Translations under genes and position numbers: made by a program | IMG/VR virus record: IMGVR_UViG_2721755712_000001 | Origin: a virus | Taxonomy: Duplodnaviria; Heunggongvirae; Uroviricota; Caudoviricetes | Strand: one strand, 5' to 3' | Length of the DNA: 64,000 nt | Notes under the pieces: model-generated | The model's database searches: none | The model's input: only the letters and a program-made list of their open reading frames with translations | What the model was told of the DNA's origin: nothing | In this document: piece by piece, positions 4,101-8,331 of the stretch | Position numbering within the stretch: position 1 is the first letter of the stretch | Layout: each line of letters opens with the position of its first letter

Positions 4101-4711
4101 TCTATTTTCAATGCGCTGGCGACTTTCATCGCCCGGACGTTAATCTGGTCGTAGAATGGGGTAGGGTGCGGATAAACCACACTATAGAAGTTGTCTTTTC
4201 CACCCGCTGTAATCAGTGTGCTTATGATTTTTGCAAAATCGTTGCGTTGGAACACGCTACCGATGTCGGAAGTAAGCAGGATGATGTTGCCTTTGGCATA
4301 TGTAGAAACCAACTGTTCGAGCGAGAGACGCGGTACAAAGTAGAACTGTTCTCGTGTGTTGGCCACCGTCATTAGTTCGCAGATGTCGCGATATCCTTGC
4401 TCATTTTTAATTAGAGCGGTAAACGAGTAGTTACGTCCCCGCTCTAATGATTCCATACATCTCATAGATTCTTTAGCAAGTTTAGCCCGGTGCTCGTATG
4501 TGGGATCATCAACAATGTTTAGTTTCACACCACAAATAACCGCCATGTCGTCACCAGCGGCACGTTGTAGTGGAATAACGCTCGCAATATTCATGCTATC
4601 TGCTGAAATTACAGCGGTGTAGCCAGCTTCTCTGGCAATCTTCACCGCGTTTTCTGCTTTTAGAGCCGACTCCCCAAGTGAGAAGTCAGTTCGAACCATC
4701 AGTGCTTTCAT
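1193..4711 (-). CDS. DNA polymerase III alpha subunit-like replicative polymerase (DnaE family)
   Basis: 1172 aa; contains [49 protein letters not shown], matching the DnaE palm/catalytic-aspartate region; N-terminal PHP-like region appears degenerate (no His cluster). Confidence 0.9.
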   Translation of the reverse strand: [1172 protein letters not shown]

Positions 4712-4895
4712 GTGTTTTTACCTTTATGGTTTTTTTGATTTTGTCATTGGGGAAGCCTACGAACTTCCCATACATCGAAATCGCAACTTCTTTTGCTGAT
4801 TGGTGACAATCGGGCTTGTCTGGACATACCAGACAAGCCTTACCAGTTTCAGAAGCAGCGATAAGAGAGCCGAAACATCCTTTACGCACGATCAA
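4686..4895 (-). CDS. small Cys-rich protein, possible zinc ribbon
   Basis: 69-aa ORF overlapping the polymerase start; C-x2-C...C-x4-C spacing; coupled between CobS-like and polymerase genes. Confidence 0.35.
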   Translation of the reverse strand: MIVRKGCFGSLIAASETGKACLVCPDKPDCHQSAKEVAISMYGKFVGFPNDKIKKTIKVKTHESTDGSN

Positions 4896-6127: not shown

Positions 6128-6222
6128 GCGTTTTTCCTTTGTTTTCTAATGAGCGTTCAACTTCTTATATAAATATATCATTATCTATCGTAAGTGGTTA
6201 CTTATCGTTAAGGCTGTTTTGT

Positions 6223-8331
6223 TCACTTTAAAATGATACGAGATAGTTCAGTAACTACAGATGAACCAAGACTATCAACGCTCGTTACCAGGGCATGATT
6301 TGAGTAAAATCTCTCCGGTGCGTCAGTCATGATGCCAATTGCCATCAAATCAATGTCAGTCTGCGTTTCAATTTGCTTCGCAACCGAACGCAAATGAGCG
6401 TCAAAACCTCTCCCAACAGCCCACGGCTCGCCATCGCTCAGAACAAGCATGATCTTCCTGTCCTCCATGCGACCGGAAAATAACGATGCAAGGCTGGCTA
6501 TGCTTTCACCATCCACGTTATTAAGAAGTGGGAATGTGTAGCCTACGCACCCCATACGTGAGCGAACTTCGCGAGAATTTACCTTTTCATTCCAATTTTT
6601 GATGATAGGTAGCATTAAAGATTCAAAGCGAGAGAACTCATACTTGACAGCCTTAAGTTCTCCTGCCGCCATATGACTACCAAATGTAGTGAAGCCTGTG
6701 ATAATGTTGGGAACATTTATTCGATCAAGGGCATCGGCGATGGTATATGCACTTGCAAGAGCCAATTGTATCGTTATACCCCTCATTGAACCTGATAAAT
6801 CAATCACTTGTTGAACACAGGCGTTAACGGCTTTAGATTCTTCTTTTTTACGAAACACGCGATCATCATTCATTGCTAATCTGTAGATACTAGAACCATG
6901 AATGCGCCCCCGACGCTGGCCCGGTATAAACTGAACTCTGTTTCTGCTTGCTATTGCTCGCTCCAGGTCTTTTGCCAGCGTCGACGAAACACCTGACGAA
7001 AGATGCTTTTCAATATATTTGTCGAAGAGCTGGTTGCCTTCAGGAACGATGCGATAGCGGCTGATTGGACATCCTCCTAAATCAATATCGGAGAATGTTT
7101 TAATAAGCCGTTTGATATGGGCTTCTGCCTGATCAATCGAGCCGATGAAGTCGTATGAGCGATTGTATGGCCTGTATTCGCTTTTCGAGCTTTCTGTTAA
7201 CTCGCTTTTAATCGTTTCGGATAGAGCATCTTCTGTCATGCCTCCGACTTCATCTTCTATGCTATCCAGCTCCTCTAAAGCCTCTTCCAGACTCATTTTT
7301 GACGGAGTTGGGATATCTGAAGAGCCGTCTTCTGTCGTTTTTCTTTTTTCGTGGTCAGCGGTTAATGATTCTGACGCCGCGTTATCAGAAGCATCAGAAT
7401 CTGATACCTCTTTATCATTTTCTGTATCATCGAATATTGTTTCTGATGATTCAGATAATTCTGAATCATCACTGTTGTTATTATCATGTTTGTGCTTACT
7501 ATGTGATTCTGATTTGATAGATTTGTGGTTATCTAACGATGAAGATGTCTCATGATCTTCGTTGTCTTCATTGTTTTCTCCAGAGGCATCCGTCTGGTCA
7601 GCGTCTGAAGGATCGGAAGTTTTTCCCGGAGCTGACTCCTTACCATTGCTTTCACTTTCAGTGTCTTTGAGGATCTTAGCTATGGTCGCAGCCACCTTTA
7701 CACAATCCTCGGTGCAAGACATGTTACGCACGGCCACATCGATACCATGTTCTTTTAATAATGAAATTGGTTTCTCAATGACAGGCCAGTATTCATCCAT
7801 GAAATCTACGAACGGTGCTTGGCCATCCCAGGCTCTTACAACCGGACAGAGAAAGAAGTTTAGAAAAAGCGCGCGCTGATCTTTGCCACAATAAGCAATA
7901 GCCTCTGAAGCCTTTGGTTTAAAGACTTTTTCGATTATAAGGCGCTGAGTTGCCATCAGATTACGTCTTGTTCCGTTAAAGACCTGACCCATTTTTCGCT
8001 CGATGAACACGTCTTCTAAGGCATTCCATAGCGACCAGGAAGGAACGCGTCCTTTTTCTCTCATTTTGTTGGACACACGAATATCGGTAAACAAAATGTG
8101 AGCAACCTCATGATCGAGAAATCCGCGCACAGCATTCATCAATGCCGGTGTTGCGTTATCCGGGATTGATGGGATGTTTACGAGAATTGGCTCTCCATCA
8201 TCGTTATAGCGTACATAAGCGTCGTCCCCTCGTTCTGCAACAGGGATGTTTTTACCTGAAAGGAGAGCGACTACTCGTTTTACACTGTCACGGAAGTCCT
8301 GAACCTCTTTGATGGAACGTTTTTTAGACAT
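6223..8331 (-). CDS. CobT-like von Willebrand factor A protein with acidic Ser/Asp/Glu-rich linker
   Basis: C-terminal MIDAS-like motif VIDLSGSM; central low-complexity acidic region; N-terminal HEVAH (HExxH) motif. Confidence 0.6.
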   Translation of the reverse strand: MSKKRSIKEVQDFRDSVKRVVALLSGKNIPVAERGDDAYVRYNDDGEPILVNIPSIPDNATPALMNAVRGFLDHEVAHILFTDIRVSNKMREKGRVPSWSLWNALEDVFIERKMGQVFNGTRRNLMATQRLIIEKVFKPKASEAIAYCGKDQRALFLNFFLCPVVRAWDGQAPFVDFMDEYWPVIEKPISLLKEHGIDVAVRNMSCTEDCVKVAATIAKILKDTESESNGKESAPGKTSDPSDADQTDASGENNEDNEDHETSSSLDNHKSIKSESHSKHKHDNNNSDDSELSESSETIFDDTENDKEVSDSDASDNAASESLTADHEKRKTTEDGSSDIPTPSKMSLEEALEELDSIEDEVGGMTEDALSETIKSELTESSKSEYRPYNRSYDFIGSIDQAEAHIKRLIKTFSDIDLGGCPISRYRIVPEGNQLFDKYIEKHLSSGVSSTLAKDLERAIASRNRVQFIPGQRRGRIHGSSIYRLAMNDDRVFRKKEESKAVNACVQQVIDLSGSMRGITIQLALASAYTIADALDRINVPNIITGFTTFGSHMAAGELKAVKYEFSRFESLMLPIIKNWNEKVNSREVRSRMGCVGYTFPLLNNVDGESIASLASLFSGRMEDRKIMLVLSDGEPWAVGRGFDAHLRSVAKQIETQTDIDLMAIGIMTDAPERFYSNHALVTSVDSLGSSVVTELSRIILK

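Follow-up and report, generated by a model that had tools for sequence, protein, structure and literature searches.

The window analyzed in this study is a 64,000-nucleotide stretch of viral DNA (IMG/VR record IMGVR_UViG_2721755712_000001), which nucleotide matches over bases 1193–8700 identify as an SSU5-type phage-plasmid of Escherichia coli. On its minus strand, the genes for a 702-amino-acid (aa) CobT-like protein and a 411-aa CobS-like ATPase are followed by a small cysteine-rich open reading frame (ORF) and by dnaE, which encodes a DNA polymerase III alpha-like protein. On balance, the conserved residues and domains favor reading the pair as a non-chelatase remodeller of the MoxR-class AAA+/vWA-MIDAS type, probably with an active zincin, that acts early. 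The evidence comes from the N-terminal domain (N-domain) of the CobT-like protein, from its contrast with true cobaltochelatase, and from the position of the pair among replication genes.

The CobT-like and CobS-like proteins

The 702-aa protein matches the Pfam CobT N-domain (aa 9–291, E-value 3e-27), phrog_1576 (E-value 1.5e-300), and, among solved structures, CobT (PDB 9uka_G). The original prediction, made from the DNA letters and a list of ORFs, had pointed to an N-terminal HEVAH motif in this protein, and the motif is indeed located at aa 74–78. From the composition of the 702-aa protein, an HExxH pattern is expected by chance 0.026 times. A search with aa 1–235 against 1.84 billion cluster representatives (50% identity) retrieved 1146 clusters at an E-value ≤0.001, and HExxH was found within the first 200 residues in 147 of the best 150 of these 1146 representatives; two of the three without it are fragments. 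CobT-like proteins of podovirus ICP2 and Gordonia phage Nimi13 have the motif, too. Conservation was read from alignments A1 and A2 of divergent relatives (27–45% identity), in which G70, F71, D73, H74, E106, E111, G120, and R166 are invariant, while E75, H78, N103, D107, and N124 are shared by no fewer than 96% of the sequences. Since HExxH is conserved across the relatives, it is under selection, and by this measure the occurrence of HEVAH is not due to chance.

Structure prediction around HExxH, which had been put forward as a check on the metalloprotease idea, gave a consistent picture. The AlphaFold2 model of aa 1–235, built from 61 sequences, has a predicted local distance difference test score (pLDDT) of 90 and a predicted template modeling score (pTM) of 0.84, and comprises helix a1, three strands, and a helical bundle. 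HExxH is placed in the second helix of the domain (residues 62–81), and E106 and E111 in helix 99–117, so that in the model HExxH lies on one helix and a downstream Glu on the following helix, as in gluzincins. The order of the elements equals that reported for the N-domain of true CobT, for which crystal and cryo-EM structures were presented in a 2026 preprint and which is built from a single helix, a sheet of three strands, and eight helices, "resembling the peptidase M48 subfamily C domain" (bioRxiv 10.64898/2026.07.21.739949). The role of the N-domain of true CobT is confined to binding CobS and CobN; C-terminal to it come a disordered linker of ~90 residues, the shaft, which enters the CobS pore, and the MIDAS-bearing vWA domain; the preprint makes no mention of zinc, HExxH, or phages (bioRxiv 10.64898/2026.07.21.739949). 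A Foldseek search of the N-domain model against PDB returned no match at an E-value ≤0.001, and a single-sequence search of the N-domain against PDB sequences gave chance matches to human leukocyte antigen (HLA) only. The only part of the N-domain that matches phrog_459, labeled 'peptidase', is aa 72–128, and the match is weak (E-value 6.6e-8).

For comparison with true CobT, the N-domains from four annotated cobS-cobT loci (Sinorhizobium, Pandoraea, Cereibacter, and Sphingomonas replicons) were aligned with the phage family. Where the phage protein reads G-F-L-D-H-E-V-A-H, the four CobT proteins read G-[LAFT]-[GA]-D-[SA]-[MAF]-A-L-[RQ], with both His and the catalytic Glu replaced, although the remainder of the domain can still be aligned; E106 and E111 are common to the phage family and all four. 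True CobT thus keeps the fold without HExxH, and the motif is therefore unneeded for folding or docking. That both survive its loss, together with its strict retention in the viral proteins, argues for metal binding or catalysis. The N-domain of the phage protein probably keeps a complete gluzincin site, H74-E75-x-x-H78 plus E106 or E111, and the zincin is probably active; because the site is kept complete, the machine probably cuts its client as well as pulling it. The suggestion that HExxH marks a possible metalloprotease site therefore gains support from the modeled helix, the M48C-like topology, the invariant E106 and E111, and the contrast with CobT. The same contrast points to a degenerate protease in the N-domain of cobaltochelatase CobT.

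The remainder of the 702-aa protein follows the CobT plan. The original prediction had described a vWA protein with a long acidic, Ser-rich linker, and both the CobT_C match of the vWA domain and the composition of the linker bear this out. Residues 229–385 of the linker consist of 30% Asp and Glu, 20% Ser, and 11% hydrophobic residues, and the linker is not conserved in either alignment. A profile of the phage family aligns with 9uka_G through the shaft (Q373–R413) and the vWA domain (E-value 1.5e-59), and the N-domain is aligned only from position 88 onward. The shaft motif QKDLERAIA is nearly invariant in alignment A2. The vWA domain aligns to the crystal structure 21vt_A, and its MIDAS pattern (DxSxS...T...D) is intact, with D511, S513, and S515 invariant and T548, T549, and D633 nearly so. 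All elements of the CobT architecture are thus present, namely the N-domain, the disordered acidic linker, the shaft, and the vWA domain with MIDAS. When the protein was compared with the PADLOC defense models, the lone match was to DrmE (E-value 0.0027), mostly over the acidic linker (aa 340–469), and no defense family was recognized.

The 411-aa protein contains an AAA_5 domain (aa 173–293, E-value 2e-15) and belongs to phrog_249 (E-value 2e-106). Its residues 141–411 match the solved CobS (PDB 9ujv) with an E-value of 2e-25, with midasin, CbbQ, and NorQ ranking next. Pfam, PHROG, and PDB matches agree with the earlier assignment of a MoxR/CobS-like AAA+ ATPase paired with a vWA protein. The Walker A and Walker B motifs are conserved, as are the motifs GNTNG and SRFG; with intact Walker motifs and an adjacent vWA protein carrying the MIDAS pattern, the two genes have the features of a MoxR-class AAA+/vWA-MIDAS pair. 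The ATPase was also said to possess an N-terminal Cys cluster. A conserved N-terminal motif does exist, but it is a predicted C2H2-type knuckle rather than a Cys cluster: C18, C21, H26, and H31 (C-x2-C-x4-H-x4-H) are invariant in an alignment of 72 sequences, the pattern was found in 118 of 120 ATPase homologues, and Cys37 is confined to the enterobacterial sequences of the alignment. The knuckle is followed by a conserved Y-T-T-x-F-P-D-x-P-T-L-S stretch and a helix rich in Lys, Ala, and Glu. In the AlphaFold2 model of the ATPase, pLDDT is 83–95 over aa 11–80, and a strand, a strand, and a helix span the knuckle. The first 140 residues, knuckle included, are absent from the four true CobS proteins. 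No structural neighbor was found for the N-terminal model, and the ATPase N-terminus had no Pfam match.

Gene block and its conservation

The synteny set consisted of 82 loci (80 viral contigs and two metagenomic contigs). Xanthomonas phage JGB6 was left out of the analysis, its record being fragmented by frameshifts. The cobS-like gene follows the cobT-like gene in 81 of the 82 loci, and dnaE lies next to the cobS-like gene on the same strand in 78, the four exceptions including contig-end truncations. The cysteine-rich (Cys4) ORF is present in the block in 76 loci, and the missing cases again include contig-end truncations. Relatives with 30–45% identity keep the block, several of them on contigs of ~105–115 kb and others integrated in chromosomes. 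Their gene order runs from helicase, primase, and ligase genes through integrase, helix-turn-helix (HTH) or RepC genes and a small ORF to the cobT-like and cobS-like genes, and continues with a sigma-70-region-2-like gene, phrog_3616, dnaE with a C-terminus resembling uracil-DNA glycosylase (UDG), a gp32-like single-stranded DNA-binding protein (SSB), a 5'-3' exonuclease, and RecA. Virulent Pseudomonas phage nickie has the block as well, as do Stenotrophomonas phage BUCTxx99 and three Rhizobium phages (RHEph10, B1VFA, and RHph_Y2_17_1); its conservation extends over alpha-, beta-, and gamma-proteobacterial phages of both temperate and virulent lifestyle. The podovirus ICP2, which is unrelated, also has a CobT-like/CobS-like pair, located ahead of its primase and DNA polymerase genes. 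The conserved gene order indicates that the pair is a stable part of early, replication-side modules and not of virion modules. In the window, the virion genes (tail fibre, central tail fibre, tape measure, portal, and terminase) are located at ~28–56 kb, at least 20 kb from the pair.

The Cys-rich partner named in the original prediction proved to be a conserved gene with four cysteines and can be placed more precisely. Its four Cys (GCFGS...CxxC-x5-C) are invariant in loci down to 42% CobT identity, and the 69-aa ORF matches phrog_6337 (E-value 2e-44) and, weakly, the N-terminus of phrog_3616 (E-value 6e-5). In distant relatives (among them L002, RHEph10, nickie, and BUCTxx99), a phrog_3616 protein of 175–228 aa with the same G-C-F-G...C-x2-C-x5-C start is encoded directly upstream of dnaE, except that in RHEph10, L001, and L097 one small ORF lies between the phrog_3616 gene and dnaE. 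Given the shared four-Cys start, the enterobacterial 69-aa ORF corresponds to the N-terminal domain of the phrog_3616 protein. The phrog_3616 proteins had no match in Pfam. In the window, the start of the 69-aa ORF overlaps the stop of the cobS-like gene by 4 nt, and its end overlaps the start of dnaE by 26 nt. The counterpart of this ORF is left unannotated in the record of Escherichia phage Cyrano (OV696614). Distant relatives (L001:13446–14096, L089:12819–13454, and equivalents) encode a sigma-70-region-2-like protein of 209–253 aa between the cobS-like and Cys4 genes; the genes at this position in L095 and L098 had no Sigma70_r2 match, and the window has no sigma-like gene between the cobS-like gene and dnaE. 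In the enterobacterial lineage, the sigma-like gene has disappeared from this position and the Cys4 protein is reduced to 69 aa.

The run of same-strand genes begins with a 70-aa ORF (phrog_2627), which is present in 69 of the 82 loci, and an ORF of 60–76 aa holds its position in distant relatives. This small ORF is always directly upstream of the cobT-like gene, in temperate and virulent relatives alike, and the C-termini of its products look similar by eye (a hydrophobic run, G-x-G, and a hydrophobic run). The module may include this ORF as an additional component.

At the other end of the block, DnaE contains four Pfam domains of polymerase III alpha (PHP, DNA_pol3_alpha, finger, and HHH_6). 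The DnaE proteins of the relatives end in a UDG-like domain (PF03167), and the C-terminus encoded in the window (1193–1700) matches the separate families phrog_4335 and phrog_13175, which suggests that the window DnaE carries the same fusion. In many close and distant relatives, dnaE is split by an insert after codon 782–789; the window has no insert, and the matching site lies near codon 785 (~nt 2350–2370). The insert of L012 (15966–16779) contains a free-standing 244-aa ORF with an HNH endonuclease motif and leaves DnaE halves of 787 and 389 aa, while the inserts of L051 and L079 measure ~675 nt and ~107 nt, the latter with a change of frame. An Rfam search of the dnaE-splitting insert found no intron. 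A CspA-like cold-shock ORF adjoins dnaE (578–889, plus strand).

Bases 1193–8700 share 98% identity with Escherichia phage Cyrano, 95–96% with phages PhiR41_1 and CMS-2020a, and 80% with Salmonella phage SSU5, and they match 783 plasmids of Klebsiella, Escherichia, Enterobacter, Yersinia, and Salmonella with identities of up to 99.3%. The ORFs listed in the original prediction, including those of the ATPase, the vWA protein, the Cys-rich protein, and DnaE, are all present on the minus strand (Table 1). A search of the minus strand from 8642 to 4686 revealed no terminator-like site, and the hairpin just past the dnaE stop codon is likely the end of the transcription unit. A promoter scan yielded fewer sites than shuffled sequence and was uninformative, and no clear operator repeats were seen in 8300–8950. 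The counterpart of the divergent 128-aa HTH gene is labeled a putative repressor in the Cyrano record; in Pfam, the protein shows the HTH domain alone, and a self-cleaving peptidase domain is absent. The window also carries a cluster of four tRNA genes (Ser-tga, Thr-tgt, Tyr-gta, and Asn-gtt; 13184–13837, minus strand), of which Cyrano annotates three (Ser, Thr, and Asn).

Table 1. Features of the cobT-like/cobS-like block and its surroundings in the window.
Feature	Position (nt)	Strand	Description
Hairpin	1165–1186	unstranded	G+C-rich, terminator-like; just past the dnaE stop codon
dnaE, 1172 aa	4711–1193	minus	DNA polymerase III alpha-like; downstream gene of the block; phrog_405
Cys4 ORF, 69 aa	4895–4686	minus	GCFGS...CLVCPDKPDC
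cobS-like gene, 411 aa	6127–4892	minus	MoxR/CobS-class AAA+ ATPase with an N-terminal extension of ~140 aa
Walker B, YLADEYD	5396–5416	minus	conserved
Walker A, GHAGTGKS	5582–5605	minus	conserved
CKWCGKSFHYFKSH	6035–6076	minus	predicted C2H2-type zinc-knuckle motif; ATPase N-terminus
cobT-like gene, 702 aa	8331–6223	minus	zincin-like N-domain, acidic disordered linker, shaft, vWA/MIDAS
vWA domain, aa 492–701	6229–6858	minus	CobT_C, E-value 3e-82; FTT at aa 547–549, SDGEP at aa 632–636
MIDAS, DLSGS	6787–6801	minus	within the vWA domain
AKDLERAIASRNR (aa 453–465)	6937–6975	minus	core of the shaft-like segment; the homologous CobT shaft inserts into the CobS pore
Linker, ~aa 229–440	7012–7647	minus	acidic, Ser-rich, low hydrophobicity; from composition
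N-domain, aa 1–228	7648–8331	minus	helix a1, three-stranded sheet, helical bundle; predicted M48C-like zincin fold
NALEDVFIE (N103, E106, D107, E111)	7999–8025	minus	contains the candidate third metal ligand; next helix after that of HExxH
HEVAH (H74, E75, H78; aa 74–78)	8098–8112	minus	predicted zinc-binding and catalytic motif
70-aa ORF	8642–8430	minus	first gene of the same-strand run, upstream of the cobT-like gene; phrog_2627, E-value 2e-40
HTH regulator, 128 aa	8894–9280	plus	repressor-like, divergent; HTH_19, phrog_8; context, outside the proposed machine
Integrase gene	10378–9275	minus	upstream of the block

Proposed function and alternative explanations

By homology with the cobaltochelatase motor CobST, the CobS-like product would form a hexameric ring and the CobT-like product would act as its adaptor, with the N-domain docking on the lid domain of the ATPase and the conserved shaft inserting into the ring pore. 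The vWA domain would hold a client protein through its intact MIDAS, ATP-driven pulling would remodel this client, and the gluzincin site may cut the client or a partner of the client. Since the pair is fixed beside the Cys4 protein and dnaE across distant phages, the client would most likely be a protein linked to the replication of phage DNA or to the early takeover of the host, and candidates include DnaE, the Cys4 protein, parts of the host replisome, and the HTH regulator. We infer the mechanics of ring, shaft, and MIDAS from homology, and metal binding and proteolysis from conservation.

Several observations weigh against this reading. A search of seven N-domains against Pfam at E-values up to 10 recovered no peptidase family, Peptidase_M48 included, and the third metal ligand could be either E106 or E111. 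Within a single phage supergroup, shared inheritance rather than function may account for the conserved gene order. Moreover, HExxH has been lost in at least four lineages, all of which retain the gene pair; the corresponding position reads SEISK in phage nickie, REVST in phage BUCTxx99, REVAH in P0320 (contig L094), and HQVAL in P0264 (contig L099). Synteny with dnaE is kept wherever the contig reaches it (nickie, BUCTxx99, and L099), and L094 ends at the cobS-like gene. As the pair is kept after the motif is lost, proteolysis must be dispensable for at least part of the function.

Two further explanations differ in the place they give to proteolysis. In one, the pair is a two-chain, FtsH-like AAA+ protease with an active zincin and an obligatory accessory of the phage DnaE replisome or of the lysis-lysogeny decision, which we consider possible but doubtful. 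If it were true, the motor of cellular cobaltochelatase would be a catalytically dead relative, and many viral 'cobST' genes counted as auxiliary metabolic genes for B12 would be misassigned. In the other, the HExxH domain is a docking module and the pair is purely a chaperone, which performs MoxR/vWA maturation without proteolysis, for instance by metal loading or activation of DnaE, which has a PHP domain, or of another enzyme. The four lineages that lost HExxH yet retain the genes, with synteny where the contig reaches dnaE, speak for it, as does the N-domain of true CobT, which just binds CobS and CobN, and the MoxR/vWA pairs CbbQ/O, NorQ/D, and CobST, which supply the next-best PDB matches, remodel without cutting. 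However, among sequences with just 30–40% identity, H74, E106, and E111 never vary and E75 and H78 hardly do, HExxH is kept in distant viral subfamilies, and in true CobT both fold and docking persist without these residues. A purely chaperone role thus seems unlikely.

Another explanation assigns the zincin to a switch of the lysogenic or plasmid state, in which it cleaves the HTH regulator or a maintenance factor with the ATPase as unfoldase, while a non-proteolytic core of the machine serves replication. A model for such a switch is ImmA, which cleaves ImmR. In its favor, the HTH protein shows no self-cleaving peptidase domain of its own. Loci L088, L093, and L094 were compared with L001, L002, L089, and L095–L101, a comparison of few independent events that ignores kinship; an HTH homologue adjoins the cobT-like gene in 10 of the 10 sampled HExxH-intact lineages (as does an integrase or RepC gene, except in L098) and is absent in three of the four loss lineages, with nickie, BUCTxx99, and P0320 having no HTH homologue, integrase, or RepC upstream of the cobT-like gene. 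L099 is a counter-example, since it has lost HExxH and keeps the HTH gene. Furthermore, HExxH is retained in Nimi13 and in ICP2, a podovirus regarded as virulent, whose sampled region contains no integrase or repressor. Pfam gave no match of the N-domain to Peptidase_M78 (ImmA/IrrE), and the cobT-like gene belongs to a run divergent from the HTH gene, where it would be expected to be under the control of the repressor, an orientation unsuited to a trigger. Such a switch is improbable, and a link of HExxH loss to the virulent lifestyle, or of proteolysis to the temperate state, remains a weak idea.

A role as virion assembly chaperone and processing protease has been proposed for a MoxR/vWA-peptidase pair of the same architecture in T4-like jumbo phages (Iyer et al., 2021; PMC7824862). 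In all relatives sampled, as in the window, however, the pair is situated among helicase, primase, ligase, dnaE, SSB, exonuclease, and RecA genes, and in the window it adjoins lysogeny genes far from those for head and tail; because of this genomic position, we regard the proposal as quite improbable for the present pair.

A further explanation is that the genes are auxiliary metabolic genes, i.e., a true cobaltochelatase motor that borrows the host CobN to raise cobalamin. It agrees with the standard annotation 'porphyrin/cobalamin biosynthesis', with the domain layout shared with CobST, and with a published hypothesis (Liu et al., 2021; PMC8651126). The scores against the NCBIfam equivalogs fall far below the cut-offs, with 68.9 bits against 759 for CobT (TIGR01651, aa 297–697 aligned) and 84.8 bits against 558.6 for CobS (TIGR01650, aa 141–411). 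CobN was not found among the 28 window ORFs of at least 250 aa, and the three longer than 1300 aa encode the tail fibre, the central tail fibre, and the tape measure. To our knowledge, E. coli has no aerobic B12 pathway and no CobN, and the anaerobic B12 route of Salmonella is ATP-independent. Class I ribonucleotide reductase does not use B12, and it is a class I enzyme, NrdA, that is annotated in phage Cyrano. The B12 pathway engineered into E. coli was built from ~30 heterologous genes including cobN, cobS, and cobT, and Salmonella follows the anaerobic route (PMC6249242). Unlike true CobT, the phage protein has an intact protease motif, and the ATPase has an additional zinc-knuckle domain. 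With no CobN in the element and no aerobic B12 pathway in the host, the pair would insert no cobalt into corrin. The auxiliary-gene explanation is very improbable, and for the SSU5-type lineage it was rejected. In the Cyrano record (OV696614; L087:23688–27127, corresponding to window 4892–8331), the pair is named 'cobalamin synthetase' and 'dimethylbenzimidazole phosphoribosyltransferase', a naming that mixes it up with unrelated enzymes for which Salmonella nomenclature uses the names CobS and CobT.

Relation to known systems

Marine cyanomyoviruses carry cobS and cobT in their core genome, and in virome studies these genes are regularly scored as belonging to vitamin-B12 metabolism. Viral forms are widespread, and the present N-domain alone matches 1146 clusters at 50% identity. 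If the viral form is an ATP-driven protease or remodeller, the ecological reading in terms of B12 is wrong and a common early phage function awaits discovery. The phage-plasmids of E. coli, Salmonella, and Klebsiella that carry the pair are genetically tractable and are clinically relevant carriers of resistance genes. To a specialist, the architecture as such would be no surprise, and it is the question of function that has ecological reach. The original prediction considered the role of such pairs as not established, and this agrees with the literature, which offers two untested proposals. Liu et al. reported that cobST clusters are widespread in tailed viruses, called the 'peptidase' label of viral cobT a mistake, and proposed that the host CobN is hijacked for cobalamin boosting (Liu et al., 2021; PMC8651126). 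In T4-like jumbo phages, Iyer et al. described a MoxR ATPase alongside a vWA protein bearing a metallopeptidase at its N-terminus; they proposed a role in virion assembly and cited a MoxR/vWA pair of an archaeal virus that is required for growth of the tail (Iyer et al., 2021; PMC7824862). The architecture was thus already known. What is new here is that the intact and lost catalytic residues are tied to the new CobT structure, that tests of chelatase membership fail in a host without the pathway, and that the C2H2 extension of the ATPase, the identity of the Cys4 ORF, and the conserved dnaE block are described.

The two-gene architecture with a peptidase-like N-domain is the feature shared with the viral cobST genes (PMC8651126) and with the phage MoxR and vWA-metallopeptidase genes (PMC7824862): an HExxH domain is N-terminal in the vWA protein, and the ATPase gene adjoins it in a phage genome, the likeness to the jumbo-phage examples being one of description. 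Those pairs come from cyanophages, jumbo T4-like phages, or archaeal viruses, whereas the present one resides in the dnaE block of SSU5/nickie-type siphoviruses.

Among cellular systems, CobS/CobT (EC 6.6.1.2; PDB 9uka) is of the same AAA+ clade and has the same adaptor layout and adjacent genes. The phage pair differs from it in scoring about one tenth of the family cut-offs, in having no CobN client, in its intact HExxH, in a linker about twice as long, and in the 140-aa C2H2 extension of the ATPase. It also differs in setting, since the phage pair lies inside a replication module with the order T-S, whereas in all four cellular loci cobS precedes cobT, with BolA and DnaJ-domain neighbors in three of them (Sinorhizobium, Cereibacter, and Sphingomonas). 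CbbQ/CbbO, NorQ/NorD, RavA/ViaA, and midasin share the helix-2-insert AAA+ ring and a vWA-MIDAS adaptor gripping an acidic residue of the client, but adaptors of the CbbO, NorD, and ViaA type have no protease domain, and their clients are known enzymes or ribosome assembly factors. The peptidases of family M48 (Ste24/ZMPSTE24, HtpX, and Oma1/BepA) have the same HExxH helix with a downstream Glu on the next helix; the phage protein, in contrast, is soluble rather than membrane-bound and does not match the Peptidase_M48 profile. FtsH follows the same logic of an AAA+ motor joined to a zincin, which in the phage pair would be divided between two chains, the ATPase and the putative protease.

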